A stretch of DNA of 64,000 nucleotides, taken from the NCBI GenBank assembly GCA_963833575.1, contig CAWHXY010000004.1, positions 416,001 through 480,000 on the forward strand, in the 5' to 3' direction. The notes under the pieces were generated by a model. It was not told the DNA's origin. It worked only from the letters and a program-made list of their open reading frames with translations, and made no database searches. Positions 17,495 through 61,631 of the stretch are shown piece after piece. The stretch comes from Candidatus Bathyarchaeota archaeon. Lineage in GTDB: Archaea > Thermoproteota > Bathyarchaeia > Bathyarchaeales > Bathycorpusculaceae. Each line of letters starts with the position of its first letter. Positions within the stretch are counted from its first letter, which is position 1. The position numbers were made by a program, and so were the translations under genes.

Positions 17495-17545
17495 ATGAGG
17501 GATCGTCACCTCAATAGCTGGGATCGTCGGGTACTTATTCTTTGA
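17495..17545 (+). CDS. Putative branched-chain amino-acid leader peptide MRDRHLNSWDRRVLIL
   Basis: GAGGA SD at 17484-17488; ends in Val-Leu-Ile-Leu then TGA; 97 nt upstream of ilvB. Confidence 0.6.
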   Translation: MRDRHLNSWDRRVLIL

Positions 17546-17575
17546 TTCGCCTAGGCACCCCTCTGAAAAATTACC

Positions 17576-17600: not shown

Positions 17601-17642
17601 CAAGACGACAGCATAGATAATTTTATAAAAGGAGACCAATAA

Positions 17643-22781: not shown

Positions 22782-24305
22782 ATGACAAATAAAACCCAAA
22801 AAACCATCCGTATTTTTGACACAACTTTAAGAGACGGAGAACAAACTCCGGGGGTCTCTTTAACTGCGGATGATAAGATAGAGATTGCGCGCCAACTAAG
22901 CAAGTTAGGCGTCGACACTATTGAAGCTGGTTTTCCAAGTTCTTCTGAAGGCGAAAAAAAGGTTGTCAAAGATATTGTCAAAATAGGGTTAACCTCTGAA
23001 ATCTGCGCTTTATCAAGGGCAACAACAAATGACATTGACGCGGCAATTGATTGCGACGTTGATTTGATCCACGTTTTTATTCCAACATCTCCCGTTCAGA
23101 TGAAATATGCAGTAAACTTAACGCCTGAACAAGTGTTATCTGCAACTGTAGAGTCGATAGAGCATGTAAAAAAGCATGGGATAAAATGCGAGTTTTCACC
23201 CATGGATGCCACACGCTCAGAAATGCCCTTCCTAAAACAAGTATGTCAAGCAGCAGAGAAAGCAGGGATGGATAGCCTAAATGTTCCCGACACTGTGGGT
23301 ATAATGATTCCTAAAACAACAATTAAACTAATCGAGGAACTAAAAACTGTAGTTAAAGTTCCAATAAGTACACACTGTCATGATGACTTTGGCTTAGCAG
23401 TTGCAAACTCTTTAGCCGCTGTTGAAGCCGGCGCGACCCAAGTACACGTTGCCGTTAACGGACTAGGTGAGCGAGCTGGAAACGCATCTCTAGAAGAAGT
23501 TGTTATGGCTCTACATTCGATTTACAAATACAAAACTGGCGTAAACACACGGTTGTTATACAGCACTTCCCGATTGGTTTCTTCGCTAAGTGGCATAGCT
23601 GTGCAAGCTAACAAAGCAATTGTTGGCGAAAACGCTTTTGCTCATGAATCAGGTATCCACACACGGGGTGTAACTGAGAAACCATTAACCTTTGAACCCA
23701 TAGACCCCGAATTAGTGGGACGAACAAGAAAACTGGTCGCTGGAAAACTAGCTGGAACAAGCGGAATAAAAGCTGAACTTGAAGAAGTAGGCATTCACCC
23801 AACTGGAGAGCAAATCAAAGAAATTGTCCAACGAGTAAAAGAATTAGGCGACAAGGGCAAAATGGTGACGGATGCAGATTTGCTTGCGTTAACTTCTGCT
23901 GTTATGGGTGAAGTTATAGGAGAAGAAAAAATCGTTGACTTATGCGACTTAGCTGTTGTAACAGGCATCAAAGTAATTCCTACAGCTTCAGTTAGGCTTA
24001 CTTTGGATGGAAAAGAATACATTGCGGCAGAAACTGGTGTAGGTCCAGTTGACGCTGTCTTAAAAGCCATCCAAAAACTAACCAACAACTTGGAAAGCAT
24101 ACGGCTTAGCGAATATCGTCTTGAAGCAATCACAGGTGGTTCAAATGCCGTCGCCGAAGTTGTCATAAAAGTTGCTGATGAAAAAGGCAACATTGTTTCT
24201 GCGCGGGCTGCAAGAGAAGATATTGTAATGGCTAGCGTTGAAGCAATGATAAACGGTATAAACAAGCTTTTGATAAAGAATCGTAAGCAGGGAAACAAAA
24301 AGTGA
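22782..24305 (+). CDS. leuA: 2-isopropylmalate synthase (LeuA/CimA family)
   Basis: DTTLRDGEQ, HCHDDFG, GERAGN, C-terminal regulatory domain. Confidence 0.88.
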   Translation: MTNKTQKTIRIFDTTLRDGEQTPGVSLTADDKIEIARQLSKLGVDTIEAGFPSSSEGEKKVVKDIVKIGLTSEICALSRATTNDIDAAIDCDVDLIHVFIPTSPVQMKYAVNLTPEQVLSATVESIEHVKKHGIKCEFSPMDATRSEMPFLKQVCQAAEKAGMDSLNVPDTVGIMIPKTTIKLIEELKTVVKVPISTHCHDDFGLAVANSLAAVEAGATQVHVAVNGLGERAGNASLEEVVMALHSIYKYKTGVNTRLLYSTSRLVSSLSGIAVQANKAIVGENAFAHESGIHTRGVTEKPLTFEPIDPELVGRTRKLVAGKLAGTSGIKAELEEVGIHPTGEQIKEIVQRVKELGDKGKMVTDADLLALTSAVMGEVIGEEKIVDLCDLAVVTGIKVIPTASVRLTLDGKEYIAAETGVGPVDAVLKAIQKLTNNLESIRLSEYRLEAITGGSNAVAEVVIKVADEKGNIVSARAAREDIVMASVEAMINGINKLLIKNRKQGNKK

Positions 24306-25117
24306 AGACAGTAGCCTTCCAAGGCGAACCAGGTGCTTACAGCGAGAGCGCAGTTTATCAGTTCTTCGGAAACGGCACCATAGCTAACCCATACAAGGAT
24401 TTCAAAGCTGTTTTTGACAGTGTTTGCTCTGAGGAAGCCGAGTTTGGCGTTGTTCCGATAGAGAATAGTATTGAGGGTAGCGTCACACAGAATTATGATT
24501 TATTTCTCAGGTACGATTTGAAAGTTTGCGCAGAAGTTATTGTTAAGCTTGAGCATTGCTTAATTGCTAACCCAGGTACCGCCATAGAAGATATTAAAGT
24601 GGTTTATTCGCATCCGCAGGCTTTGGGACAATGTCGAACTTTTCTTGAAGAGTTCGGGCGTGAATTAATATCAACTTACGACACAGCTGGCAGCGTTAAA
24701 ATGATTAAAGAAAAAGGTTTGAAGAATGCAGCGGCAATTGCCAGTGAAAGAGCAGCCAATCTTTATGGCATGCATATCCTCGCCAAAGATATCTCTGACA
24801 ACCCTGAAAATTACACTCGTTTCTTTGTTCTATCTACAGAAGATGCGGCACCAACAGGCAAAGATAAAACTAGCATAATCTTCGCGGCTAAGCACGAGCC
24901 AGGCTCACTCTATCATGCACTGGGTGAATTTGCCAAACGAAACATCAACTTAACAAAAATCGAGTCAAGACCCACTAGACAAACACCCTGGGAATACAAC
25001 TTCTACCTTGACTTTGAGGGACATAGAACCCAACCCCAATGTGCTGACACGTTAATTGCCCTTGAGAAATTTGCCATTTTTGTTAAAGTTCTAGGTTCGT
25101 ACCCCAAAGCAAGATAA
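24302..25117 (+). CDS. pheA: Prephenate dehydratase
   Basis: PIENS, SHPQAL, NYTRF, ESRP. Confidence 0.95.
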   Translation: MKTVAFQGEPGAYSESAVYQFFGNGTIANPYKDFKAVFDSVCSEEAEFGVVPIENSIEGSVTQNYDLFLRYDLKVCAEVIVKLEHCLIANPGTAIEDIKVVYSHPQALGQCRTFLEEFGRELISTYDTAGSVKMIKEKGLKNAAAIASERAANLYGMHILAKDISDNPENYTRFFVLSTEDAAPTGKDKTSIIFAAKHEPGSLYHALGEFAKRNINLTKIESRPTRQTPWEYNFYLDFEGHRTQPQCADTLIALEKFAIFVKVLGSYPKAR

Positions 25118-25192
25118 TTGGTCATTCTATCTTTCTTTGGTTTGTTTGATCAAGCATGATGCATTCTAAATGTTCAAAATTAACGGAAAAAA

Positions 25193-26065
25193 TTACGCCT
25201 CAGTTGATTCAAGCATTTTGTACATTATTTCATAAGACTTAGCATAGTCACCGTCAATTTCTACCAGTTTTGACTTCAGACGCTCCATTCTCTTAACGAT
25301 AGCATCAACGTCTTTGTTTTTGATAAGGTCTAGCCATGCTTGTGCTTTAGCTATGAATTGGTCTTCAATTTCTCCAAGCTTAGGCAAGTTCGTTTGAAGA
25401 CTAGCGTAAAGGTCTGGCGTTTCCAACGCAGTGGCTTCCGCCAGCGTAAACAGCATGCGATAGGTTGTGCCAGCAACTTTTTTGCTTTCAAGGAAGTTCT
25501 TTTGCTCTAGAAGCGTTTCGCATGCAACTAAACCTAGAAAATGCGGTAACCCCAAAACAACTGAAATTATTTCATCGTGTTTTTTTGGTGACATTATAAA
25601 GACGTGTGCTTCCTCAGTTTCCAGCCATTTCTTGAATTCCTCAGCAAACTTTTCTTCCGCTGGATTAGTTGGTGTGAGAACATATGCTTTGTGTTTAAGC
25701 CCAGTGCTTCCTGGACCAAAAACTGGGTGAGTACCCAAGACTGTAGCAGTTTTGATGAACTGGTGCATGGTTTTAACTGGGGCTTCTTTGATTGAGCAAA
25801 TATCCATCACAACTTGACCCTGATGAAGGGCAGGACTGATCGCTTTAACAACTTCTTCGATCGCGCCTATTGATACGCAAAGGAAGATCTGATCAGCCTC
25901 TCGTACTGCCTCTTCGAAATTGGTAGTTAAGTCAACAGTTAAGTCTATGAGTTTCTTGAGTTTCTCTTTTTTCCTATCCGCCAATATGACATCGTAATTT
26001 TTTGAATTAAGAAATTTTGCGAACCAAACGCCCATTTTTCCTGCGCCAATTATGGCAACTTTCAT
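25193..26065 (-). CDS. tyrA: Prephenate dehydrogenase
   Basis: GAGKMG, DICSIK, HPVFGP. Confidence 0.92.
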   Translation of the reverse strand: MKVAIIGAGKMGVWFAKFLNSKNYDVILADRKKEKLKKLIDLTVDLTTNFEEAVREADQIFLCVSIGAIEEVVKAISPALHQGQVVMDICSIKEAPVKTMHQFIKTATVLGTHPVFGPGSTGLKHKAYVLTPTNPAEEKFAEEFKKWLETEEAHVFIMSPKKHDEIISVVLGLPHFLGLVACETLLEQKNFLESKKVAGTTYRMLFTLAEATALETPDLYASLQTNLPKLGEIEDQFIAKAQAWLDLIKNKDVDAIVKRMERLKSKLVEIDGDYAKSYEIMYKMLESTEA

Positions 26066-27186
26066 TCAAGGGCCTCGGTGATTATGTCCAGCGCCGTCTT
26101 TATTTCTTCTCTGGGCGCGGTTAAGGATATTCGGAAATGTTCTCTGTAGTCGCCAAAAGACGTACCTGGAGCAACTGCTACACCTTTGTCAAGTAATTCT
26201 AAAGTGAATTTTTCTGAGTCCAACCCCTGGCGCTTAGGGAAAACATAGAATGGCGCTTCTGGTTTCGTGAATGAGAGCCCTGCTTTTGCTAATGTTTTGG
26301 TTGCCATCTTTGCCCTTTCTTGGTATTCATCTTTTATTGTTGTGGCAAGTTGTTTTTCCATTTCCAGCCCTTTCAAAGCGGCTTCTTGTATGAATACTGG
26401 GACGTTATTAATTGTAATTTGGTTTAGTCTAGTTATATTGTCTACGAGTTGTTTGTTGGCAATGATATAGCCTATTCGCCAACCCGTCATGGTGAAGGTT
26501 TTGGAGAAGCCATTAGATAGAATATGTTTGTGCCCTCCATTGTATTCTAAGATGCTTTTTGCTTTGGTAAATGCAATTGTGCTGTAGACTTCATCTGAGA
26601 GAATTGTGACTCCTTTTTTGTTTGCTATTTCTACTATGCCGTCAAGGGCTTCAGCGTCGATTACTTTGCTCGTGGGGTTGTTTGGGTTGTTGAGTATTAT
26701 CATACGAGTGTCTTTGTCAATCATAGCCTCAAGTTTTTCAAGATCAACTTTCCAGCCGTTTTCCATTTCTGTTCTTAACAGTTTAGTTTGAGCGCCAAGG
26801 CTCTTTGCAGTTAAATCGTAAGCGGTCCAGTAAGGCGTAGGAATGATAACGTTTCCGCCACCCCTCATCATGAGGTACATTGTAGCAAAAATACCCCATT
26901 TAGAACCAGGAGTTATTACTACGTTTTCAGCTTTGACTCCATGTAGCTCTGCGAGTTTTTCGCGTAATTTTAGCTCACCATAGGAGGAGGAATATTTTGT
27001 TTTACCAGCCTTCATGGCATTGTACGCAGCTTCAATTATCTCATCTGGCGTAGCTAGGTCTGGATCGCCTAGGTTTAAGCGAATTATTTTTTTTCCTTCA
27101 CTTTCGAGTTTTAGAGCCTTTTCATTTATTTCATAGAGCACTGTGTCGAGCCTCTCATTGACTTCTTTTTTACTCCTGAACAGCAC
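26062..27186 (-). CDS. Class I/II PLP aminotransferase (aromatic/aspartate)
   Basis: NNPNNPT, SDEVY, SKTFTMTGWRIG. Confidence 0.92.
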   Translation of the reverse strand: MLFRSKKEVNERLDTVLYEINEKALKLESEGKKIIRLNLGDPDLATPDEIIEAAYNAMKAGKTKYSSSYGELKLREKLAELHGVKAENVVITPGSKWGIFATMYLMMRGGGNVIIPTPYWTAYDLTAKSLGAQTKLLRTEMENGWKVDLEKLEAMIDKDTRMIILNNPNNPTSKVIDAEALDGIVEIANKKGVTILSDEVYSTIAFTKAKSILEYNGGHKHILSNGFSKTFTMTGWRIGYIIANKQLVDNITRLNQITINNVPVFIQEAALKGLEMEKQLATTIKDEYQERAKMATKTLAKAGLSFTKPEAPFYVFPKRQGLDSEKFTLELLDKGVAVAPGTSFGDYREHFRISLTAPREEIKTALDIITEALE

Positions 27187-27430
27187 TGCACATATTAACT
27201 ATTTCGCGGTAAACTGCTTCAACTTGTACGGGATCAAGATGAAATTTAACAGCTCTCAGTTTGACCCGCTTGAAAACCTCGTCTTCTCGGCCAAGGTCCC
27301 TTACTGGCACACCATTCTTTTTCTTAACTAAGCCAATTGCCCTACACGCTTTCGTTCTTTCGCAAAGGGCAGTAATGATTTGTTCGTCAATTTCATCAAC
27401 TTTTTTTCGAAGCTTTTCGATTTCATCCAT
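27170..27430 (-). CDS. Chorismate mutase (AroQ type)
   Basis: LRKKVDEID...R...IGLVK...RE pattern. Confidence 0.9.
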   Translation of the reverse strand: MDEIEKLRKKVDEIDEQIITALCERTKACRAIGLVKKKNGVPVRDLGREDEVFKRVKLRAVKFHLDPVQVEAVYREIVNMCSAVQE

Positions 27431-28545
27431 TATTTAGCTCTCTCCAAAACTTTCGGAATAAATCCAGCACGAATCATGTGATCAGCTAAGGTTATTGCCA
27501 CCGCAGATTCAACCGCGGGTACGGCTTTTGGAACTACGCATGGATCATGCCTGCCCTTGATTTTGAGTATAGATTCTTTCATTGTCGAAAGATCAACGGT
27601 TTTCTGTTCTTTGCCGACAGAAGGTGTCGGTTTAATTGCCGCGTGAATTATTATTGGCATGCCATTTGATAATCCGCCTAAGATTCCGCCCATATTATCC
27701 GACAAAGTTGCAACTTTTCCATTTTGCATAATGTAGGCATCGTTACTTTCTGAACCTTTCAACGCTGCAATCGCGGAGCCCAATCCAAACTCAACGCCTT
27801 TAACTGCAGGAACATCAAATAGTGCCTTCGCTAAGTCAGCATCAAGCGAATCGAACAAAGGTTCTCCGACACCCACGGGAACGTTTAAGGCAATGCATTC
27901 AACGGTTCCGCCAATGCTTTCACCTTCTTTTCTGGCATCCACGATGGCTTGCTCCATACGTTCGCCACAGGCCAAGTCCGGACATCTTGTAGCCCCCGCA
28001 TACTTGTTCTGACGAATATCTTCAGTGCTAAATTTCTTGCCACTTGTAATTTTTCCAATCGCGCGAGTATAAGCTAAAACGTCAACGTTGAATTGGCGCA
28101 GTAGTTTTTTTGCTATTGCTCCAGCCATGATGAGTGCAACTGTCACCCTGCCACTGAAGCGCCCACCACCGCGATAATCCTGAAAATCACCATACTTCAA
28201 ATGAGCTGGGTAGTCGGCGTGTCCTGGTCTTGGCAAGTCCTTTATTGCCTCATAATCGCTGGAGTCAACCTCTTTGTTCTCGACAGTCAGAGCGATTGGG
28301 GCACCCGTAGTAAAACCGTTAAAAACTCCTGAAAGAATCATAGCGATGTCTTTCTCGATTCTTGCTGAAACAATTTTTGTCTGAGTTGGAATACGCCTGT
28401 CTAGTTCCATTTGAATGTCGTCTTCTGAGAGAGGCAAACCTGCGGGACACCCATCAATGACTACTCCAATGATTTTGCCATGACTTTCGCCAAAAGTGGT
28501 AATAATAAATTCTTTACCTATCGAATTGCCCGCCAACAATTTCAA
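27430..28545 (-). CDS. aroC: Chorismate synthase
   Basis: FGESHG, RPGHAD, KPTPS, RHDPC. Confidence 0.97.
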   Translation of the reverse strand: MKLLAGNSIGKEFIITTFGESHGKIIGVVIDGCPAGLPLSEDDIQMELDRRIPTQTKIVSARIEKDIAMILSGVFNGFTTGAPIALTVENKEVDSSDYEAIKDLPRPGHADYPAHLKYGDFQDYRGGGRFSGRVTVALIMAGAIAKKLLRQFNVDVLAYTRAIGKITSGKKFSTEDIRQNKYAGATRCPDLACGERMEQAIVDARKEGESIGGTVECIALNVPVGVGEPLFDSLDADLAKALFDVPAVKGVEFGLGSAIAALKGSESNDAYIMQNGKVATLSDNMGGILGGLSNGMPIIIHAAIKPTPSVGKEQKTVDLSTMKESILKIKGRHDPCVVPKAVPAVESAVAITLADHMIRAGFIPKVLERAK

Positions 28546-29818
28546 CTCCTATTTGTTTTAGATCAGTGAAGAACTGCGGATAAGACTTTCTAACGCACTC
28601 AGCATTTCGGATAATGGTTTTTCCTTCCGCGCCTATCGCTGCAACTGAGCAAGCCATCGCTATACGATGGTCATTGTGAGAATCGATCACTGCACCGTGC
28701 AGAGCGCAGGGACCTTCTATGGTTAAGCTGCTTTCATCTACCTTTATTTTTGCACCCATCTTTCCCAATTCAAGATAAAGTGACTTCAACCTATCTGATT
28801 CTTTAAGTTTAAGCCTTTGTGCCCCAGTTATTTTTGACGTACCTTCGGCAAAACACGCAAGCGCTGCACAAACGGGAACCAGATCCGGAATATTTCTTGC
28901 GTCAACGTCTATAGGCTTAAGGTGTACTCCCATTCCATTTATTTCAATGCTGTTATTGCAAACTTTTCCATCAATACCCATTTGTTTAAGGATACCAAGA
29001 ATTACTTTATCGCCCTGCACACTTTTGTATTCAAGATTGTTTAATTGTACTTTGGAGTTGGTTACGGCTGCGGCTGCGAACAGAAAGGAAGCTGAAGAGA
29101 AATCACCCGGAACCCTGCAGTCACACGGTTTATAGGATTGATTTGCCGGAATTTTTATTCGATTAAAGTTATCATGGATTTCAACCCTGATTTCATGTTT
29201 GGAGAGAACATCTAACGTCATTTTAACGTAATCTGAAGATTCAAGCGGAGTTGTCAAAGTGATTTCCGTTTCAACCTTTGCCATTGGGCAAGCAAACATT
29301 AAGCCAGAAATAAATTGCGAGCTAATATCGCCAACAATCGATGTCTCCCCTCCAAGAATCCCACCGCCCAATACAAAAACAGCGTCTTTGCCTCCGAACT
29401 TTCGTATTTGAGCTTTTGCACCGAGATCTTCAAGGCTTTGAAGTAGAGGTTCGATTGGTCTTCGTGTAAGAGAATCATGAAAAACTAGGATTGATGGATC
29501 AGGAGCTAAAGCGGCTACAGGGATCATAAAACGCAACGTAGCACCTGATTCGCCACAGTCAATAGGCTCTTTGGCGTTTGTGAGCGGGTGTGCACCGGTA
29601 ACTGTCCAGCATTCGTCAGCCGTTGCTACTTGCGCGCCTAAAGCGGTGATGGCTCGCAGTGTTGCTTGTGTGTCCTCGGATATGAGAGGGTTCGATACTT
29701 TGGAAATGCCGTTGGTTAGGGCAGCGGCTAAAAGCATTCTTTGTGTGTAAGATTTTGATGGGGAAGCACATATCTCGCCCTTTAAACTTTCTGTTTTTTT
29801 GATGGTTACATCAGTCAT
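28514..29818 (-). CDS. aroA: EPSP synthase
   Basis: SKSYTQR, SSQF, KESDR, DHRIAM. Confidence 0.97.
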   Translation of the reverse strand: MTDVTIKKTESLKGEICASPSKSYTQRMLLAAALTNGISKVSNPLISEDTQATLRAITALGAQVATADECWTVTGAHPLTNAKEPIDCGESGATLRFMIPVAALAPDPSILVFHDSLTRRPIEPLLQSLEDLGAKAQIRKFGGKDAVFVLGGGILGGETSIVGDISSQFISGLMFACPMAKVETEITLTTPLESSDYVKMTLDVLSKHEIRVEIHDNFNRIKIPANQSYKPCDCRVPGDFSSASFLFAAAAVTNSKVQLNNLEYKSVQGDKVILGILKQMGIDGKVCNNSIEINGMGVHLKPIDVDARNIPDLVPVCAALACFAEGTSKITGAQRLKLKESDRLKSLYLELGKMGAKIKVDESSLTIEGPCALHGAVIDSHNDHRIAMACSVAAIGAEGKTIIRNAECVRKSYPQFFTDLKQIGVEIVGGQFDR

Positions 29819-30693
29819 TTATCAATCACCTTAGCTTTCTCGCAGTTCAAATGCGTCTCCAAGATTTCTCCGCCGTATTTTTGTAGGGAGGCTCTCACTG
29901 AATCTAGTTTATCTTTGAATGTAACAGCCGTCACCGCTGGTCCTTTTCCACATAATCCAGCCGCTACTGCTCCAGCAGATAAAGCATCTAATGCTATTGC
30001 AGGGTTGTATCCTGAGGCGGAGGAGTAAATTAAGCCATTAAGCGTGAGTGCCTCCCATATTTTTCCCTCCAATGCAAGCGTATAAGCAATTTCGACAAGA
30101 GGTTTTATCGTTTGCAGCCTGATAACATTGGAGTTAGCCGTATAGGCTTTTTCCAGTGGTAAATGAAACAGCACTACTAAATCTTCCGCCAAAGGCAATT
30201 GTTTTACTATTTTACGTTTCAAATTATCAGTAATCACTATACCGCCGAAGTAAGAAGCGCAAGCATCATCAAGAGCGCCAGTTATTGTAACTTTCGCATC
30301 AAAAGCCGCTTCAACGCCCAGATTTATAACTTCTAAGTCATCAAGCTTTTCGCCTAGCGCGGCGGTAGATGCAAGAGCTACAGCGTTTGCCGCTGCACTG
30401 CTGCTTTTGAGTCCTTTGGCAGCGGGAATGTTGGACCAAGTTGTTATTTTTGCGCCAAAACTTTTGTCTAAACAGAATTTTTTCAGGACTCGGGATACCG
30501 TTTTTTCTACTAGAATGGTGCTTTCTTTTGAGTCCGAGGTTATTTCTGTTTTGAAAACATGAGGTTCATCGGTTAACATGACTTCAGCTTTAGTCCATAA
30601 ATCAACGCCAAAAGCTGCGCCTTTCCCGAGTGCAATGGCGTTAATGATTGTTGCAGCGCCATGAGTTATTGCCGTAGCCTTACCAGTCAACAT
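29815..30693 (-). CDS. aroK: Archaeal (GHMP-type) shikimate kinase
   Basis: GLKSSSA, TGALDDA. Confidence 0.92.
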   Translation of the reverse strand: MLTGKATAITHGAATIINAIALGKGAAFGVDLWTKAEVMLTDEPHVFKTEITSDSKESTILVEKTVSRVLKKFCLDKSFGAKITTWSNIPAAKGLKSSSAAANAVALASTAALGEKLDDLEVINLGVEAAFDAKVTITGALDDACASYFGGIVITDNLKRKIVKQLPLAEDLVVLFHLPLEKAYTANSNVIRLQTIKPLVEIAYTLALEGKIWEALTLNGLIYSSASGYNPAIALDALSAGAVAAGLCGKGPAVTAVTFKDKLDSVRASLQKYGGEILETHLNCEKAKVIDK

Positions 30694-31557
30694 TTACACC
30701 TTTAGCAAGTGATTAAGGGCTGCCTTTCTCATAACCTCTACTGGTGCATTGCACGCGGTCCAGATTTCAAAAGAGGCAGCGCCTTGATAAATTAACATTT
30801 CAACCCCACTTACTACTTTGGCGCCAGCCGCTTTGGAATCTTTAGTTAATTTTGTTTCAATTGGGTTGTACACTATGTCCATTACAGCTAAGTCAGGTTT
30901 CAACCATTCAGGCTCCACAAGGGTTTGGTCTACGTTTGGTTTCATACCGACTGAAGTGGCATTAATGAGCACGTCGGCATCAGCAAGATTATCTTTAAGT
31001 GAGACTGGCGAAAGGCTGCCGCCCTTGATTTTTTTGTTAAACTTTTGGCTTAAGAGATTAGCTAAACATTCTGCCTGTTCAGATGTGCGATTCAAAATTA
31101 CCAATTTATCTGCTTCCTGTGAAAGTGTGTAAGCAATGGCTTTTGCCGCGCCACCCGCTCCAAGCAACAATACTTTTTTGCCTCTCGGCTTAACGCCGTT
31201 CTGTTCAAGGGCATTTAGTGCGCCCACACCGTCAGTGTTAAAACCAAAAAGTTTTCCATCCTTATTTAAAATAGTATTGATTGAAGCTATAGTTTTAGCA
31301 GTCGGATCTGTCTCATCCAAATATTTGATGACCGCATTTTTGTGAGGCATGGTAACGTTTAACCCGTGAATATTCAAAGCACGCACACCATTTATTGCCT
31401 TTTCAACTTCAGCCGTTTTTACCTTGAAAGCCAAAAAAACATAATCAAGCTCTAATGCTTCAAACGCAGCATTCTGCATTATTGGGCTAAGAGTATGCTC
31501 AATAGGATTACCGATTACTCCACAAACCCTTGTTGTTCCCGAAACAACCATTTTCAC
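30694..31557 (-). CDS. aroE: Shikimate dehydrogenase
   Basis: NVTMPHK, NTDG, GAGGAA. Confidence 0.95.
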   Translation of the reverse strand: MKMVVSGTTRVCGVIGNPIEHTLSPIMQNAAFEALELDYVFLAFKVKTAEVEKAINGVRALNIHGLNVTMPHKNAVIKYLDETDPTAKTIASINTILNKDGKLFGFNTDGVGALNALEQNGVKPRGKKVLLLGAGGAAKAIAYTLSQEADKLVILNRTSEQAECLANLLSQKFNKKIKGGSLSPVSLKDNLADADVLINATSVGMKPNVDQTLVEPEWLKPDLAVMDIVYNPIETKLTKDSKAAGAKVVSGVEMLIYQGAASFEIWTACNAPVEVMRKAALNHLLKV

Positions 31558-32237
31558 TTTACCCCTAGAAGATCGTAAGCAGATCTCATTTCTTGAATAC
31601 TCATCTGTCCAGATGCAGTTTCGCTTCCCTGTTCAAGTGAAGCAAAAGTGAAGAAGGCACCAAACAATGGTGAGAGGAGCCTAGAGATTTTGCCTTTTTC
31701 GCCCATGCAGAAACAGACAAGTTTCAGGCTGCTTGGCTTAGAAGAAACGAAATTTAGCGTCGGCAGGTTGTCTTCGATTTTCTTTGCGGTTGTTACTATT
31801 TTGCAGACGTCCGCTCCACTGGAGAGTTCTTGTTCTAGAATCTTTTCTATTTCGGAAATGCTTAGTGCGCCGTCGAATTTGTGGTATGATACGATTGGTT
31901 TGGCGCCCAACTGCTGGATTTCATCGATTGTTTCTTTACATTTTGAGCTTGATAGGTCAACATCAACATATTCAAAGCCATTTTTAGCAGCGTTAAGTAA
32001 TGTTTCTTGACGTTCAGTTTCTGTCCCTGAGAAATTGCCGCTTTCGCTTCGCAGTTTGTTTGATGCGATCAGAGGAATTTTTGTTTTTTTGACAAGTTTA
32101 GACAGATTTCGGGAGGTTTCAAGATAGTCTAGTCGCACTTCGATGAAGTCTGCTTTGGCTTTTTCTGCTCTCTCAATTAGAGTTGACGCTTCATGATTGT
32201 TTTTTGGGAGAATCGAAACACAGATTCTCGCTGTCAC
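31554..32237 (-). CDS. aroD: Type I 3-dehydroquinate dehydratase
   Basis: EVRLD, SYH, CKIV, MG...SR. Confidence 0.92.
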   Translation of the reverse strand: MTARICVSILPKNNHEASTLIERAEKAKADFIEVRLDYLETSRNLSKLVKKTKIPLIASNKLRSESGNFSGTETERQETLLNAAKNGFEYVDVDLSSSKCKETIDEIQQLGAKPIVSYHKFDGALSISEIEKILEQELSSGADVCKIVTTAKKIEDNLPTLNFVSSKPSSLKLVCFCMGEKGKISRLLSPLFGAFFTFASLEQGSETASGQMSIQEMRSAYDLLGVK

Positions 32238-33277
32238 TTTTCGATCACCGTTTCTTCAGGCACGGATACGCCGAAGTGTCGGCCTCCTTTGGCAGATAAA
32301 TGCACTAGGACTTCATCATTTGGTTTTAGTTCTGTTACTGGTTTTGAGGTTTTCGGGGTAACCACGCGTATGGTCTCAGCGTTTTGAAGGATAGTTTTTA
32401 TTTTTGTACCGTCTGCCTCGGCTTCGATAAGGATTAGGGGCCTGAACTCAATTTTTGATCTGCCCACATTTGTTATTCTTGCTTTTCCTTCCCTGTTAAT
32501 GATTAAAACTTCGTCTCCAGCCTTCAACTCAGAGAGGTACCGAGTATTTTGCAGTGAAGTTAAGGTATAATGCGATGCAGGTCCGGCGTTAACTCGGAAA
32601 GGTCTAGATTGAACATAGGGATTTTCGTTTACTTCTGCTTCAACAAGGAAGAATCCTGCAGATTGGCACCCGACTAGCATTCCTTCGCCAGGAACCATCA
32701 AATCAACAGTGTCAACGCAGACTCTGGCTCCCGTACCGATTGGTTTGATAGATAAGACTTTTGCTGATGTGAGCGCTACTTTTGGCATCTGAGCCTTAAC
32801 TATTTTAGCGGTTTTCGCAAGCTCGTTGGAGTTCGATGTTTTCAATAAGACACCATCTGTTCCCAGTTCTAGGGCTTCAAGAACCACTTTAGCATCTTCT
32901 GCGGTTGTTACTTCGGCGATTAGTTTGCTTTTGCCACCATGAGCTTTAGCGATTAAGTTTTCAAGAGGAATCACTCGCCAATCTAGGCAGTTAATTATTA
33001 TGTAGTCAATCCCTAGTTCTGCTGCTTTTGCAGCTTTGTTTTCGTCTTCTTTTCCTCTTATGCTAATTTTGGTTGCAGTTACTTTGCCTTCATTTTTCAA
33101 TTGGGCAATTTTTTTCTCATTTAGTTCTGTTAGAAAGGTTATGTTTAATTTGTCAGACTTGTTACTTGCTTGTTCGCCGCTGAGAACTACATCAGCATTT
33201 TCATGGGCAAGACTAAGTAAATTCTCTTTTTCTTGCTGAGAAGCGGTTTGCTCTATTTCTACCCAGAGTTCCTTCAA
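32234..33277 (-). CDS. aroB': 3-dehydroquinate synthase II (archaeal)
   Basis: DWRVIPLENLIA, RVCVDT, RPFRVNAG, LQNAET. Confidence 0.93.
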   Translation of the reverse strand: MKELWVEIEQTASQQEKENLLSLAHENADVVLSGEQASNKSDKLNITFLTELNEKKIAQLKNEGKVTATKISIRGKEDENKAAKAAELGIDYIIINCLDWRVIPLENLIAKAHGGKSKLIAEVTTAEDAKVVLEALELGTDGVLLKTSNSNELAKTAKIVKAQMPKVALTSAKVLSIKPIGTGARVCVDTVDLMVPGEGMLVGCQSAGFFLVEAEVNENPYVQSRPFRVNAGPASHYTLTSLQNTRYLSELKAGDEVLIINREGKARITNVGRSKIEFRPLILIEAEADGTKIKTILQNAETIRVVTPKTSKPVTELKPNDEVLVHLSAKGGRHFGVSVPEETVIEK

Positions 33278-34065
33278 CTATGCTCACCAAGAATCTTGAG
33301 CGCCTGTTCTACGGTAACACCATCATGGACTATTGCTGAAAGAGCTTTGACTATCAAGGTTGGGGTTTCGTGTTGAAACACATTACGTCCAATTGAGAGT
33401 CCTGAAGCACCCGCTTTTAAGGCGTCATGTGTGGTTTGAAGGATTTCTTGTGATGTTTTGCATTTTGGTCCTCCCGCTATTACAACGGGGACGGGACAGC
33501 TTTCGATTACAGTTTTGAATGTTTCTATGTTACCTGTGAAGTTTGCTTTGATTATGTCAGCGCCTAATTCAGCGCCGATTCTTGCTGCATGCGCCACAAC
33601 ATCAGGGGCATGTTCATTTTGAATTTTTGGTCCACGCGGATACATCATTGCAAGAAGGGGCATGCCGAACAAGTCGCATTCCTCAGCCACTTTTCCTAAA
33701 GTGCTTAGCATTTTATCCTCGTCTTGTGCACCAACATTAACATGCACTGACACCGCATCTGCACCTAAGCGAATGGCTTCTTGAACAGAACATACTTGGA
33801 CTTTACCATTTATATTTGGACTAAGATTTGACATGCCTGATAACATTACTATTAGACCCGCGTTTCCGATGTCGACGTGTTTCGCTATGCCTTTGTGAAT
33901 AAGTATTGCATCAGTTTTGCCTTTGAGAAGCTGATTGATTATTTGTTGCATGTTAGCTATTCCTTGAATGGGGCCAACTGTCACGCCGTGATCCATCGGC
34001 ACGATTACTGTGCGGTTATCTGGTTGCATGATTCTTTTTAAACGTCGAGTTTTTCCTTGATTCAT
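33274..34065 (-). CDS. aroA': 2-amino-3,7-dideoxy-D-threo-hept-6-ulosonate synthase (class I aldolase)
   Basis: PMDHG, AELGADIIK, AGGPK, GRNVFQ; adjacent to DHQ synthase II. Confidence 0.88.
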   Translation of the reverse strand: MNQGKTRRLKRIMQPDNRTVIVPMDHGVTVGPIQGIANMQQIINQLLKGKTDAILIHKGIAKHVDIGNAGLIVMLSGMSNLSPNINGKVQVCSVQEAIRLGADAVSVHVNVGAQDEDKMLSTLGKVAEECDLFGMPLLAMMYPRGPKIQNEHAPDVVAHAARIGAELGADIIKANFTGNIETFKTVIESCPVPVVIAGGPKCKTSQEILQTTHDALKAGASGLSIGRNVFQHETPTLIVKALSAIVHDGVTVEQALKILGEHS

Positions 34066-34081
34066 CTTTAGTCACCTTTGT

Positions 34082-35329
34082 TTATTTAGCCGTCCTTAAT
34101 GAGTTTTTAATTAACTTCAAAGCCTTCTCACGTTCATTCCAATCCACAAAAAGCAGAATACTTGATGTTATGGTCAATATGCCTGAAATGTTTATCCCGT
34201 TGAGCCTGAGATCTTCACTAATTTTTCCAATTATGCCATGAGTTTCTTCTAAGCCGACACCGCTTGTTTTAATGAACACCAAGTCTTTTTTGACTGCCAT
34301 CGCAATGGTTTCTTTATTGCTCTTTGTAATGTCGTGGATATTATTGAAGAGCGTATCCAAGTTTTTCTCCTGAGAAACATAGAGTATGATCGAGTTTGTG
34401 TTCATTGACATGCCAAGTAAAAGGGAGTGCTGCTTTGTTTTTTCCACCATTTCTTGGATGATTTGCGGGTTTGCAGATATCCCGTTTCCAATTACCGTTA
34501 TTTCAGCAACTGGAAAAGGATGTGCAATTTCCGCGTCTAATTCGGCTGATAGTGCGCCTGTGATTACTGTGCCCTCTTTTGATATGTTGCCATGGGCGTG
34601 ATTGATTACTCGGACGTTGATGTTTTTGGGTTTGTACTTTAGAGCTTTGCTGTGAATGAATTTGGCTCCTGAATCGGCTAACCCTACCAGAGTGTTCACA
34701 TCAATTTGACTGAGGCGTTCGGGGTTGGAAACGATTTTGGGGTCACCTGACATTATTCCGTCCGCATCAGTTACTAAAACGATTTCATCAGCACCTAAAG
34801 CTTCTGCTAAGACAAACGCAGTCGTATCGCTTCCGCCTCTTCCAAGAGTCGTAATTTTGCCGTCTTTGGTTTTACCGAGAAACCCTGCAACTACAGGGAT
34901 CACTCCCCGTTCTATAAGAGGCAACACGCATTCACGAATATTCTTTTCACAATCTTTTAGGATTGGGTTCGCATTTTGAAATGCCGAGTCAGTAATTATC
35001 GGCCAATTGCTGTCAATTGGGTCAAAGTAGCAAGATTCTGCACCATTTGTTTTTAATGCTGCCGAGAATATTCTTATGCTGGTTCTCTCGCCCATCGACA
35101 GAATGTCATCTAAGTCTTTTTTCTCCAATTTCCCTTTGGAAGCATTTTTAGCTGTCGTCATGAGCACGTCAGTTGTTTTGCCCATGGCTGAAACAACGAC
35201 GGCGACTCGTGTGCCTTTTTTGGCTTCATTGATTACGGCAACCACCGCTTTTAAGAGCCTTTCGTGATCGGCTAAGCTAGAACCACCGAATTTAACGACA
35301 ATTGTCTTGTGAGAGGCAACTTTTTCCAT
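34082..35329 (-). CDS. Aspartate kinase
   Basis: VKFGGSS, VVSAMG, TLGRGGSD, C-terminal ACT domains. Confidence 0.93.
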   Translation of the reverse strand: MEKVASHKTIVVKFGGSSLADHERLLKAVVAVINEAKKGTRVAVVVSAMGKTTDVLMTTAKNASKGKLEKKDLDDILSMGERTSIRIFSAALKTNGAESCYFDPIDSNWPIITDSAFQNANPILKDCEKNIRECVLPLIERGVIPVVAGFLGKTKDGKITTLGRGGSDTTAFVLAEALGADEIVLVTDADGIMSGDPKIVSNPERLSQIDVNTLVGLADSGAKFIHSKALKYKPKNINVRVINHAHGNISKEGTVITGALSAELDAEIAHPFPVAEITVIGNGISANPQIIQEMVEKTKQHSLLLGMSMNTNSIILYVSQEKNLDTLFNNIHDITKSNKETIAMAVKKDLVFIKTSGVGLEETHGIIGKISEDLRLNGINISGILTITSSILLFVDWNEREKALKLIKNSLRTAK

Positions 35330-35348
35330 CTTGATACACCCGTGCTAT

Positions 35349-35386
35349 GCCCAGAACTTTTCCCGAAAAATCTTTTAGTTCTGGGC
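35349..35386 (-). promoter_or_regulatory. 10-bp perfect hairpin between the leader stop codon and the aspartokinase start
   Basis: gcccagaact (35349-35358) pairs with agttctgggc (35377-35386); U5 tract in the loop on the mRNA strand. Confidence 0.7.
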
Positions 35387-35470
35387 TTAAGGAAAATAAC
35401 TATAAAAATAGTAGTCGAAGCTAAGGACTTGTGATTTACTGTCTTCTTGGTTGCTTTTGCAATTGGACAT
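35387..35470 (-). CDS. Putative Phe/Tyr leader peptide MSNCKSNQEDSKSQVLSFDYYFYSYFP
   Basis: 27-aa uORF; 7 of the last 10 residues are Phe/Tyr, none in the first 17; precedes the aromatic operon. Confidence 0.75.
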   Translation of the reverse strand: MSNCKSNQEDSKSQVLSFDYYFYSYFP

Positions 35471-35509
35471 TGAAGCTTCGAACTCTTGCTGATTGAGACG
35501 TTATCCAGA

Positions 35510-35525
35510 AAATATAAGCGTTTCG
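35510..35525 (-). promoter_or_regulatory. Candidate BRE/TATA for the aromatic leader transcript
   Basis: Minus-strand cgaaacgcTTATATTT about 40 nt upstream of the uORF ATG. Confidence 0.5.
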
Positions 35526-35628
35526 GCGTTTTAGAAATTTAATACAATTTAACTGACAGCTAATTTGCTCTTTGGGGGTATAGTCTTTATCAATTCGACC
35601 GTCCATAAGAAACGTGGGAAGACATTCG

Positions 35629-36459
35629 ATGAAAACCCGAAATGATTGGCAAGAAATCCTCAGCCAATGCAAAACCAACGTACAAGCAAGCATTAGACCA
35701 TGCATCAAAACCATCAGGGAGCCACAACCTAATTTGGGCATGGGCGCTGGCGGAGACGTTATGAAGCCTGTTGATTTGGCGGCGGAGACAGCTATAATTG
35801 ATACAATAAAGCACCATAACATTTCGTTTACATTAATTAGTGAGGAGTCAGGGGTCAAAAAATTCGGCGCTAATCCCGAAAGTTGTTTCGTCACTGTTGA
35901 CCCAATTGATGGAAGCACCAATTTCATGCATGGCTTGCCTTTCTACTGTTGCTCCATTGCAGTTTCCCAGTTGGCTAACCTGACAGATGTCTACGCTGGC
36001 ATGGTTACTGACTTAGTACACGGTGCTACCTACACCGCTTTTAAGGGAAAAGGCGCATATTTAGACGACAAAAAGATAGAAACCTCAAAAACTTCTTCTC
36101 TGGAAGATGCAGTGGTAGGTTTAGATCTGAACACTTACAAAGTCAAAGAACTGATACCCAAAGTAACTCCTTTGATTGCCAGAACAAAACACATCCGTCA
36201 TTTTGGCGCCAACGCGCTTGAGCTATGCTATGTTGCAAGTGGCTTAACAGATGCATTTGTGGACGTTCGTGGGAAACTGCGCACAACCGATGTGGCGGCA
36301 GGCTTTTTAATCCTTAAAGAAGCAGGTGGAATAGTAACGACACCAGAAAATGGGATTGTAAATGTTGAATTGGATCCTACGAAAACTGTGAGCTTTATAG
36401 CTTCAGGCAATATGGAAATTCACAAAAAAATCATAAACTTGGTTCAATCGGCATGCTGA
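35629..36459 (+). CDS. Inositol monophosphatase / FBPase class IV family
   Basis: SEE, VDPIDGSTNF, DVAAG. Confidence 0.9.
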   Translation: MKTRNDWQEILSQCKTNVQASIRPCIKTIREPQPNLGMGAGGDVMKPVDLAAETAIIDTIKHHNISFTLISEESGVKKFGANPESCFVTVDPIDGSTNFMHGLPFYCCSIAVSQLANLTDVYAGMVTDLVHGATYTAFKGKGAYLDDKKIETSKTSSLEDAVVGLDLNTYKVKELIPKVTPLIARTKHIRHFGANALELCYVASGLTDAFVDVRGKLRTTDVAAGFLILKEAGGIVTTPENGIVNVELDPTKTVSFIASGNMEIHKKIINLVQSAC

Positions 36460-37295
36460 CTCTGCTTTGGCCATATCCTGCAGCACTTATAAAATCGGAA
36501 AAAACTAAAACCCTTCTTATCGCAGACCCCCACTTAGGCTGGGAAACATCGCTTCAAGAAAAAGGCATCCATGTTCCTAGCCAAACACCAAAAATTCTCA
36601 ACAAACTAAAGGCAATAATCACCAAATACAAACCACATCAACTTGTTATCCTTGGCGACGTAAAATACACAGTAATCTCTAGCGCACTAGGAGAGTGGCA
36701 TGATATCCCCGACTTTTTTGCCAAACTGAAAGAAGACGTTAGCGACATAGCCATTATACGTGGGAATCATGACGCTAACATTGAACCTCTCCTTCCAGAA
36801 ATCGTTCAGCTTTTACCTGCAACGGGAGCAGTATTTGGAGGGATAGGCGTTTTTCATGGGCATAAGTGGCCTTCTCCCGATTTGTTGAGGTGCAAAACGT
36901 TGGTTATGGGGCATTTGCATCCTGTTGTGGTTTTTCGTGATCCTGCAGGATTTAAAATTACTAGACAAGTGTGGATGAAAGCAAGCTGCGATTCCGAGGC
37001 CTTAGCGAAGATCCTCTTGCAAAAACACAACGTAAAAATTGAGGGAACAGGGGCAGAAACACTTAGAAAACACTTCAACATCAGCCTAGAAACAAAAGAA
37101 ATTGTCATAATGCCCAGCTTTAACGATTTCCTCGGTGGCAGACCAGTAAATGAAACCAGACCCAGAAAAGAAATCGGCAACGAAGCTTTAATTGGCCCTG
37201 TTTTGCGTTCGGAATCCGTGGACGTGGATAACGCAGAGCTTTACTTGTTGGATGGAACATACTTGGGAACGTTAAACCAGCTTAGAAACTTGTAG
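36453..37295 (+). CDS. Metallophosphoesterase
   Basis: ADPHLG, LGDVK, RGNHD, HGH, GHLHP. Confidence 0.9.
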   Translation: MLTLLWPYPAALIKSEKTKTLLIADPHLGWETSLQEKGIHVPSQTPKILNKLKAIITKYKPHQLVILGDVKYTVISSALGEWHDIPDFFAKLKEDVSDIAIIRGNHDANIEPLLPEIVQLLPATGAVFGGIGVFHGHKWPSPDLLRCKTLVMGHLHPVVVFRDPAGFKITRQVWMKASCDSEALAKILLQKHNVKIEGTGAETLRKHFNISLETKEIVIMPSFNDFLGGRPVNETRPRKEIGNEALIGPVLRSESVDVDNAELYLLDGTYLGTLNQLRNL

Positions 37296-61544: not shown

Positions 61545-61631
61545 GGTTTTCGTCTCAAGCTATTGTGACTAGTTTTTGCTTAAAATCTTTAACTATTTCT
61601 GGCGACATCAAATAGTCATGTTGGTCTCAAA

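Follow-up and report, generated by a model that had tools for sequence, protein, structure and literature searches.

Can an archaeon sense the supply of an amino acid through the ribosome that translates a short leader peptide? In bacteria, leader-peptide attenuation is a textbook consequence of the coupling of transcription and translation. Archaea possess a eukaryote-like RNA polymerase, terminate transcription at U-tracts and employ the nuclease FttA. The question is raised by a 64,000-nucleotide (nt) stretch of a Bathyarchaeia genome (assembly GCA_963833575.1, contig CAWHXY010000004.1, positions 416,001 to 480,000), hereafter called the window, to which all coordinates refer. On its minus strand, a short open reading frame (ORF) that ends in a run of Phe and Tyr codons is followed by an RNA hairpin and by an 11-gene operon for aromatic amino acid biosynthesis. 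Comparison of this region among relatives indicates that the ORF is likely to be a translated, Phe/Tyr-sensing leader, which would tell the aromatic operon how much charged tRNA-Phe and tRNA-Tyr is available.

The predicted leader peptide ends in SFDYYFYSYFP. Direct reading of the sequence bears out an initial annotation of the locus, in which the last ten codons were said to hold three Phe and four Tyr; aromatic residues are absent before Ser17-Phe18 and Trp is absent throughout. The close relatives available for comparison are metagenome-assembled genomes (MAGs) of Bathyarchaeota or Bathyarchaeia, some of which carry the name Bathycorpusculum. All 36 same-genus genomes possess an orthologue of the aspartokinase gene that heads the operon, and each of the 30 genus loci that were fetched carries, ahead of this gene, an ORF of 24-29 codons with an SFDYYFY-type tail and the same hairpin. 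An automatic criterion (at least five Phe, Tyr or Trp in the last 12 residues and a stop codon 20-120 nt ahead of the gene) flagged a leader in 92 of 95 upstream regions. The three regions that were missed comprise one masked by N, one cut by a contig end and one with four tail aromatics. Many of the 95 are duplicates of one genome. There are 74 distinct regions, 71 of them at the genus level, and the alignment and folding results below refer to these 71 sequences unless stated otherwise.

The reading frame of the leader is under constraint. The first ATG after element A, a conserved motif just upstream of the ORF, is in frame with the stop codon in all 71 sequences. The distance from this ATG to element A' (the Ser-Phe-Asp codons at the entry of the Phe/Tyr run) is 42, 45 or 48 nt, insertions and deletions being multiples of three. 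Within the variable N-terminal stretch, stop codons number 0, 27 and 59 in frames 0, +1 and +2, respectively. The N-terminal residues diverge freely and include few Phe (6.1%) or Tyr (1.0%); the tail consists of 37.7% Tyr and 26.7% Phe (64% together) with 0.6% Trp. Both synonymous codons are used in the tail (134 TTT and 86 TTC, 196 TAT and 114 TAC; genome-wide codon use is 56% TTT and 47% TAT), and 34 of the leaders finish with Pro-stop. The free N-terminus, the Phe/Tyr tail written with either synonymous codon and the frame constraint together indicate a translated ORF in which only the identity of the tail codons matters. As judged from the alignment, the leader is a frame-constrained, conserved and Phe/Tyr-rich ORF. 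The proposal that the Phe/Tyr tract is a mere by-product of a TA-rich promoter is contradicted by this frame conservation. In-frame read-through or hopping into aspartokinase was also rejected because the distance from the stop codon to the aspartokinase ATG is not kept in frame.

The leader stands out within its own genome. Small ORFs (sORFs; ATG-started, 8-45 codons, at most 260 nt upstream of 2,288 roughly called genes) with seven aromatic residues in a 10-residue window number three genome-wide, and this leader alone precedes aromatic genes. Its post-stop fold of -17.9 kcal/mol is the strongest of the 32 sORFs with enriched tails that were listed. None of nine leader peptides searched for is present among 15 billion predicted proteins, which indicates that gene callers miss such ORFs.

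Two RNA helices accompany the ORF. Over the full 277-column alignment, which runs from the promoter to codon 5 of aspartokinase, RNAalifold predicted exactly two helices, A:A' and B:B'. B:B' is the hairpin for which the initial annotation had described a perfect 10-bp stem from the first base past the stop codon. This stem is read directly in the window and, among the relatives, displays covariation and changes compatible with G-U pairing; the conservation of frame and Phe/Tyr codons and the stem covariation that had been proposed as a check across orthologous operons were both found. A:A' had been missed. In this second conserved helix, GGUUCGAAGC at the 5' end pairs with the Ser-Phe-Asp codons, UCGAAGC (35481-35475), just 5' of the leader ATG, facing GCUUCGA (35421-35415). 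A' shows no nucleotide variation, synonymous sites included; its AGC and TTC codons are fixed, whereas the remainder of the tail switches between TTT and TTC and between TAT and TAC.

The pairing statistics of the two helices are similar. In A:A', 99.4% of cells are paired, and the pairs that vary comprise one with compensatory changes and three with one-sided (G-U) changes. In B:B', 99.2% are paired, with compensatory changes at two pairs. Together, 99.3% of 1136 cells pair and compensatory changes occur at three pairs. The observed pairing, the count of pair types and the covariation score were each reached by none of 500 shuffles and slid controls gave 22-46%, although the kinship of the aligned sequences makes these statistics overstate independence. 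The duplex energy was -16.8 kcal/mol for B:B' (shuffled, -5.6) and -9.9 kcal/mol for A:A' (shuffled, -3.1; native better in 71/71). The single window sequence also folds both helices in its minimum free energy (MFE) and centroid structures (z = -2.0), and the hairpin word is found once in the 2.75-Mb genome. Identity as a tRNA gene, T-box or riboswitch was rejected, since neither a tRNA-like fold nor a known aptamer was found. ARAGORN gave 0 tRNA genes in 35200-35700, cmscan of 34000-37000 against Rfam at E up to 10 gave one spurious snoRNA, and the whole window at the gathering score gave two tRNAs only.

Conserved inverted repeats could also be DNA operators of a transcription factor, acting alone or beside the leader. 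The candidates for operators comprise sites centred on TTCGAA, located at the transcript start and within the ORF, together with GCCCAGAAC-N-GTTCTGGGC. These sites are near-palindromic and highly conserved, a single sequence folds equally well on both strands, and element A occupies about +3 to +13 relative to the predicted transcription start, a region around which archaeal repressors often bind. The antisense strand folds too, as expected for any perfect inverted repeat. However, the 1136 helix cells include 41 G-U or U-G pairs and 8 unpaired cells, and one-sided changes nearly all keep the RNA pair and break the palindrome. Because G-U and U-G cells are mismatches on the opposite strand or in a DNA palindrome, the helices belong to the sense RNA. 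The half-sites are 28 and about 60 bp from one another, an unusual spacing for a dimer, and in the other families considered below the hairpin sequence is unrelated yet always extends from the stop codon to the Shine-Dalgarno (SD) sequence, which is an RNA constraint. Operators are therefore a very unlikely explanation, and A:A' and B:B' are, by these substitution patterns, sense-strand RNA structures.

How far does this arrangement extend in the class? The operon-type aspartokinase was found in 190 of 401 sampled Bathyarchaeia genomes, whose families are denoted here by our own numbers. In family f7, 37 of 60 genomes have this type, and an sORF with a Phe/Tyr tail was found in all 29 usable loci. 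These f7 leaders are of the type MNSHS...FYSFSYFFYN, one starts with TTG instead of ATG, and in the f7 alignment the hairpin takes in the stop codon. In family f5, a leader of the type ...PFFGSFGYFGY is present in 4/4 loci and is followed by a purine-rich/pyrimidine-rich stem. A sample of 20 loci from further families gave a Phe/Tyr-tailed sORF in 13 (f6, f11, f14, f19, f27, f30, f31, f32 and three other genera of f1) and none in seven (f26, L164-L167; f34, L169-L171). Among 19 representatives of 12 families, 18 have a hairpin of -9.6 to -35 kcal/mol whose 5' foot falls between -6 and +4 nt of the stop codon's end and whose 3' foot falls 0-8 nt ahead of the SD; the remaining one (L183) has no convincing stem. 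The last Phe/Tyr codon of these representatives lies at -1 to -3 from the stop. The stem sequences are unrelated between families, and what is kept is the layout: Phe/Tyr run, stop, hairpin, SD and start. On balance we lean slightly towards the view that the Phe/Tyr leader and its stop-to-SD hairpin date back to the ancestor of Bathyarchaeia and are widespread in the class, so that these archaea would sense amino acid supply by a leader-peptide ribosome without a terminator/antiterminator device.

The families without a Phe/Tyr tail have other conserved elements upstream of aspartokinase. Both f26 and f34 have a conserved sORF or N-terminal extension of another kind: MGDHLFGDGVY... in f26, where the nucleotides YTTTTCGGTGATGGCGTTTAC are conserved, and ...GGYIFGDYIYGE... 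in f34. These may represent a different regulatory device for the same operon. In f14 (L172, L173), the post-stop hairpin uses the words GCUUCGA/UCGAAGC, those of helix A:A' in the genus of the window, and is followed by U5. These shared words may be a palindrome that arose by chance, or a reader of the sequence may be common to both.

The stop codon and the SD meet at the base of the hairpin in all families with the leader, and termination-reinitiation coupling is common in archaeal operons. An arrangement of this kind could serve re-initiation at aspartokinase across the hairpin foot without any sensing, or the sORF could encode a functional micropeptide. Nevertheless, a micropeptide is not expected to have a free N-terminal half and a tail defined by composition alone. 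Coupling alone leaves 7-13 Phe/Tyr codons ahead of the Phe/Tyr pathway unexplained and would lower expression during starvation. We give both explanations very little credence.

The signals that flank the leader agree with the initial annotation, which had described a promoter, a GGGUG SD and an 11-gene operon on the basis of the sequence; the alignment and NCBIfam searches returned the same elements (Table 1). The transcription factor B recognition element (BRE) and the TATA box are near-invariant in 71/71 sequences, with alignment columns A17-A19, C22-T24, T26 and A27 invariant. We take them to be the promoter of the leader and the operon because they match the archaeal consensus. The start predicted from them would give the leader a 5' untranslated region of about 17 nt. 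In the SD region, G199, G200 and G203 are each at least 90% conserved, and GGGTG probably acts as the SD of aspartokinase.

Table 1. Positions of the leader, its RNA elements and the aromatic operon in the 64,000-nt window
Feature	Position	Strand	Basis or remark
BRE-like element CCGAAACGC	35526-35518	-	Sequence read directly
TATA box TTATATTTT	35517-35509	-	Sequence read directly
Predicted transcription start, ~35487	35486..35488	-	~26 nt past TATA centre, near-invariant CA
Element A (GAGTTCGAAGC), 5' strand of helix A:A'	35475..35485	-	RNAalifold columns 80-86 with 141-147
Leader ORF, 27 codons + TAA, MSNCKSNQEDSKSQVLSFDYYFYSYFP	35470-35387	-	ATG 35470-35468, TAA 35389-35387
Element A' (AGCTTCGAC = Ser-Phe-Asp codons), 3' strand of helix A:A'	35414..35422	-	RNAalifold
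Phe/Tyr codon run, F D Y Y F Y S Y F P	35390..35419	-	U-rich, two U4-5 tracts
U4-5 tracts inside Phe/Tyr codons	35406-35402 and 35396-35393	-	Read directly
Hairpin B:B'	35386-35349	-	RNAalifold columns 182-190 with 216-224; in MFE and centroid
Hairpin 5' arm GCCCAGAACT	35386-35377	-	Begins at first base past stop
Hairpin loop, 18 nt	35376-35359	-	Holds T5 at 35370-35366
Hairpin 3' arm AGTTCTGGGC	35358-35349	-	Pairs perfectly with 5' arm, 10 bp
GGGTG, putative SD of aspartokinase	35341-35337	-	7 nt past hairpin; read directly
Aspartokinase start ATG	35329-35327	-	Read directly
Aspartate kinase, first operon gene	34082..35329	-	NF005159, 384.1 bits against a cut-off of 379
Ten further operon genes	25193..34065	-	NCBIfam; closely spaced or overlapping

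RNA libraries give some information on transcription. Three metatranscriptome runs hold 5-6% of the sampled sequence words, as assembled contigs of relatives that are 90-95% identical. Such contigs cover 35343-35475 and 35283-35468, the latter bridging the aspartokinase start. Their ends at 35475 and 35468 are compatible with a start near 35487 but do not prove it, and they speak weakly against a transcript start below 35400, the event that the initial annotation had regarded as fatal to the leader. Assembled contigs give no RNA ends, strand or level, their depths and the stretches that they leave uncovered carry no information, and carry-over of DNA is possible. The presence of leader-containing sequence in RNA libraries is thus weak support for transcription of the leader. 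In a peat metatranscriptome, one contig of 151 letters (depth 9.6) spans exactly the leader ORF and the hairpin (35343-35475), followed by 15 loose letters that resemble a sequencing adapter. This contig could represent a discrete RNA of about 133 nt that ends 6 nt past the hairpin, or copies of one fragment.

The operon downstream of the leader (25193-35329) was annotated by NCBIfam over the 59 ORFs of the window. It encodes aspartate kinase, ADH synthase, 3-dehydroquinate (DHQ) synthase II, aroD, aroE, archaeal shikimate kinase, aroA, aroC, chorismate mutase, an aminotransferase and prephenate dehydrogenase (tyrA). The matches of DHQ synthase II, chorismate mutase, the aminotransferase and tyrA fall short of the curated cut-offs, and those of the other seven exceed them. 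As the initial annotation had noted, chorismate mutase and tyrA are present and trp genes are absent among the 11 genes. The operon encodes the aspartate-semialdehyde-dependent (DKFP)/shikimate route to the aromatic amino acids. The use of aspartate semialdehyde in this route explains the aspartokinase at the head of the operon. The aspartokinase of the operon is a dedicated paralogue: a second aspartokinase-like gene of the genome (G000:C4:368948-369946) is just 33% identical, and the copies of relatives about 38%. This fits a separate supply of aspartate semialdehyde for the DKFP route. Right past the tyrA stop, a 75-nt spacer (25118-25192) carries T6 and T4 at the end of the operon. Convergent with tyrA is pheA (24302-25117, plus strand), the last gene of an ilvBN-leuCDBA operon, so that the Phe and Tyr branch enzymes are encoded in separate operons. 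Elsewhere in the window, 59389-63173 encodes ribose-1,5-bisphosphate isomerase, type III RuBisCO and AMP phosphorylase, the archaeal AMP salvage pathway, which is ordinary for the group.

How would such a leader act on the operon? We tentatively favour a translational output, in which the stop-to-SD hairpin would open depending on ribosome occupancy. This output is favoured because the sole universal constraints are that the hairpin has its feet on the stop codon and beside the SD and that the Phe/Tyr codons reach up to the hairpin. Transcription would start about 17 nt upstream of the leader ATG. A ribosome would read about 16 arbitrary codons and then 7-10 Phe/Tyr codons that reach within 1-3 codons of the stop, which is one foot of a stable hairpin with its other foot 0-8 nt ahead of the aspartokinase SD. 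In this genus, the second helix ties the 5' end, including the leader's own ribosome-binding region, to the Ser-Phe-Asp codons that enter the Phe/Tyr run. Naked RNA with both helices closed would be the least permissive state, the leader start and the pre-SD region being structured. When Phe-tRNA and Tyr-tRNA are scarce, slow ribosomes on the Phe/Tyr run would cover A', the 5' helix would stay open and more ribosomes would load. Ribosomes would linger on the last Phe/Tyr codons, and their leading edge would melt the hairpin and clear the ribosome-binding site (RBS) of aspartokinase. The closely spaced or overlapping downstream genes would follow by translational coupling. The 5' helix would then be an amplifier and untranslated RNA the off state.

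The geometry of the locus is consistent with these steps. The leading edge of a ribosome lies about 15 nt from its P site, and with a footprint of this assumed size the positions of the last Phe/Tyr codon and the stem start would place a stalled ribosome over the 5' strand of the hairpin. The initial annotation had proposed a switch between a ribosome at the stop codon and one stalled on the earliest Phe/Tyr codons. The geometric part of this proposal holds, in that the former would cover the 5' arm and the latter would not; the accessibility of the SD and AUG, however, was unchanged between these states. In folds with ribosome-sized masks, the unpaired values of SD/AUG were 0.42/0.53 for free RNA, 0.47/0.61 with a ribosome at the stop, 0.45/0.58 with one on an early Phe/Tyr codon and 0.50/0.64 with one in the middle of the run. 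Masking the Phe/Tyr tract raised the local RBS accessibility from 0.41 to 0.65.

Several points weigh against this mechanism. The naked RNA was always the most closed state, but the gap to the masked states was small (0.03-0.11). A ribosome at the stop and one on an early Phe/Tyr codon were indistinct (AUG difference -0.03, positive in 33/71), and constrained partition-function folds on five representatives were likewise without a consistent difference between these two positions. Shuffled tracts gave nearly the same accessibility as native ones (0.405 and 0.411, respectively; native lower in just 35/71), which indicates that the effect of the Phe/Tyr tract comes from U-rich codons facing an A/G-rich start region and not from a selected pairing. 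A switch by sequestration of the SD or the start codon was set aside on these two grounds. The SD lies outside the stem, at 0-8 nt, in 18 of the 19 representatives, so that inhibition by the hairpin would be steric or through a lost standby site, which folding programs cannot see. Severe starvation should halt ribosomes at the first Phe/Tyr codons and leave the hairpin closed. Such early halting fits the classical logic, in which the hairpin is the antiterminator, better, yet a partner for it was not found. The U-run of the hairpin loop (at least four in 65/71) has no part in the translational output. Within the genus, the stems are far more conserved than pairing alone demands, which hints at an extra reader, such as a protein. 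In addition, all counts come from related genomes and hence are non-independent, and the host is an uncultured Bathyarchaeia MAG, the locus being known from its sequence alone.

The classical bacterial device was looked for directly. An all-against-all duplex scan of nine segments gave just two strong pairings, B:B' and A:A'. Two weak extra pairings also beat shuffled sequences: the 5' arm with the SD region (-6.5 against -4.2 kcal/mol; 61/71) and A with the 5' arm (-5.6 against -3.8 kcal/mol; 58/71). Neither the linker nor the first 240 nt of aspartokinase offered a partner for the 3' arm (native -8.9, shuffled -9.7 kcal/mol), and the classical segment '4', a complement of the 3' arm, was rejected on this ground. 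An antiterminator formed by A and B was rejected as well, since it amounts to 5 bp only in the genus and, although stronger by eye in f7 and f5/f12, is not kept across f7 genera. With extra pairings this weak and no partner for the 3' arm, the leader has no terminator/antiterminator device. As for an intrinsic terminator, the genus stem has no U-run after it: the 3' flank in the window is AUAGCAC and the U5 lies in the loop. U5-U6 after the stem was seen only in f14, f11 and some f7 members.

The U-tracts raise the foremost alternative, which keeps the same leader and places its output on transcription or RNA survival through the termination nuclease FttA/aCPSF1. A held ribosome would mask the U-tracts of the Phe/Tyr codons and a closed hairpin would hide a third one; after run-off, the bared U-rich RNA would be cut or terminated. 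The U-rich Phe/Tyr codons might in this way serve at the same time as FttA/aCPSF1 signals, which the sensing ribosome itself would hide. The genome encodes an FttA/aCPSF1 orthologue (TIGR03675, 906.6 bits against a cut-off of 580.2), and the Phe/Tyr codons and the hairpin loop together supply three U4-6 tracts. A loop T-run of at least four is found in 65/71 sequences and one of at least five in 51/71. The T6 and T4 at the operon's own end, and the U5-U6 that follows the hairpin in f14, f11 and some f7 members, point in the same direction. The tail Phe/Tyr codons lean towards U-ending forms relative to the genome, and the TTC within A' is held by the helix. The single-stranded window from A' to the hairpin is about 25-34 nt, about one ribosome footprint of assumed size, so that one stalled ribosome could hide all bare U-rich RNA. 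According to the accessible text of one study, aCPSF1 binds RNA with two or more U4 tracts (PMC8716108). The accessible part of another describes an FttA terminator extending from -1 to -36, in which U stands at -23 and the RNA is U-rich from -30 to -36 (PMC11616081). The spacing of the two codon U-tracts fits this layout.

However, the U-tracts are not universal, as six of the 71 genus loops have a T-run of three or fewer and the tails of f27, f31 and f32 reach U3 only. The plain logic of coupling has the wrong sign: stalling of the ribosome leaves the polymerase uncoupled, which should promote termination. FttA works beside the polymerase, which has already moved on when the leader ribosome leaves. 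A cut in the Phe/Tyr tract would leave the hairpin as a 5' block that shields the operon RNA, and the preference for U-ending forms could also reflect the use of slower codons that are decoded by wobble. We consider this output possible though doubtful, and nearly as likely as the translational one.

The excess conservation of the stems could also mean that the two helices form a cis-regulatory RNA whose reader is a protein or a small ligand, the ORF being incidental or secondary. The genus stems are almost invariant, while the loop and the N-terminal codons have fully diverged, and the GCUUCGA/UCGAAGC words recur in A:A' and in the post-stop hairpin of f14. The 5' region of ilvB has a conserved RNA-like element with an unconserved peptide tail, which indicates that such RNAs exist in this genome. 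On the other hand, the frame evidence for translation is strong. Across families only the Phe/Tyr richness and the positions of the stop and the hairpin are kept, and no RNA sequence or loop motif is conserved. No Rfam family matches, and it is difficult to envisage how two plain helices would form a ligand pocket. This explanation is improbable in our judgement, and the Phe/Tyr-sensing leader continues to be preferred.

The ilvB region had been counted among three leaders in the initial annotation. The upstream sORF MRDRHLNSWDRRVLIL (17496-17546, plus strand; T7 at 17604-17610, ilvB ATG at 17643) resembles a branched-chain leader. Over the 26 genus loci shown, the nucleotides ATGAGGGATCGTCACCTCAATAGCTGGGATCGTCGGGTAC are nearly unchanged and the peptide tails vary (VLIL, VQLL, VQLF, VHFY, VPRN and others). 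As the nucleotides are kept and the peptide tail is not, the element looks like a structured RNA and not a leader peptide. A related motif precedes ilvB in three other families (L160, L161, L163) and no Rfam match was found; by its conservation pattern, the element is probably an undescribed structured RNA. Scans of the genome by composition gave no second convincing leader. Two Phe-rich sORFs, ahead of a major facilitator superfamily (MFS) transporter and an ArsR-type regulator, were rejected as leaders, the first overlapping other coding sequence. A structure-first genome scan missed even the known leader and hence is uninformative on others.

The nearest known systems are the bacterial amino acid leader attenuators (pheA, pheST, trp, his). 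Their anatomy includes a short ORF between the promoter and the first gene that is crowded with codons for the end product, regulatory codons that run nearly to the stop, an RNA helix from the stop and a sensor that is presumably the ribosome, all of which the present leader resembles. It differs in its archaeal host, in having two helices only with no mutually exclusive terminator/antiterminator pairing found, in a genus U-run that lies in the loop and not past the stem, in lacking an Rfam match and in an extra helix that joins the 5' end to the entry of the Phe/Tyr run. The leader has the cognate-codon ORF of the bacterial attenuators and lacks two of their defining features, the alternative helices and the stem-plus-U terminator. 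Archaeal termination relies on U-tracts and FttA, not on hairpin terminators or Rho. The anatomy of the leader rules out the bacterial mechanism.

An archaeal leader-peptide attenuator was not found in full-text literature searches, to which subscription journals and supplements did not belong, such that an earlier description is possible; the present leader is the first archaeal case found in that search. The accessible text of a 2025 commentary places attenuation among the consequences of coupling and gives no archaeal example (PMC13681488). Ribosome profiling of Haloferax volcanii revealed archaeal sORFs in 5' untranslated regions, a few nt from the next gene and 'reminiscent' of uORFs or leader peptide genes, but the passage on them describes no amino-acid-specific codon run, conserved RNA structure or link to a cognate pathway (PMC10117724).

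The Bathyarchaeia leader bears on whether archaea exploit their own coupling for attenuation. It offers a testable example, with a cognate pathway, about 100 natural variants and deep conservation with unrelated stems, and it represents a class of unannotated genes in an archaeal lineage that is uncultured and abundant worldwide. Among translational controls, the mycobacterial Cys sORFs and erm/cat attenuation use a structure that sequesters the RBS itself, whereas here the SD lies 0-8 nt outside the stem and the accessibility changes in the folds are small and due to composition. As far as the accessible text of the report on the mycobacterial polycysteine leaderless sORFs ('Cys ribulon'; 10.1101/834739) goes, these are like the favoured output in principle, and in the folds of the present leader it is the naked RNA that is least accessible. 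The output through FttA/aCPSF1 has its closest parallel in control of the tnaC type. The likeness is that the leader ends beside a U-rich stretch accessible to a factor, that a U-tract-preferring termination nuclease is encoded and that Pro-stop closes 34 of the 71 leaders. In tnaC, the site at which the termination factor loads is covered by a ribosome retained on the leader. In the present case, the factor would be FttA/aCPSF1 and not Rho, the signal would be tRNA charging at many Phe/Tyr codons instead of a free amino acid that a specific arrest peptide detects, and the leader peptide sequence is not conserved across families. If true, the masking of FttA signals by the leader ribosome would be a new archaeal solution for linking translation to termination.

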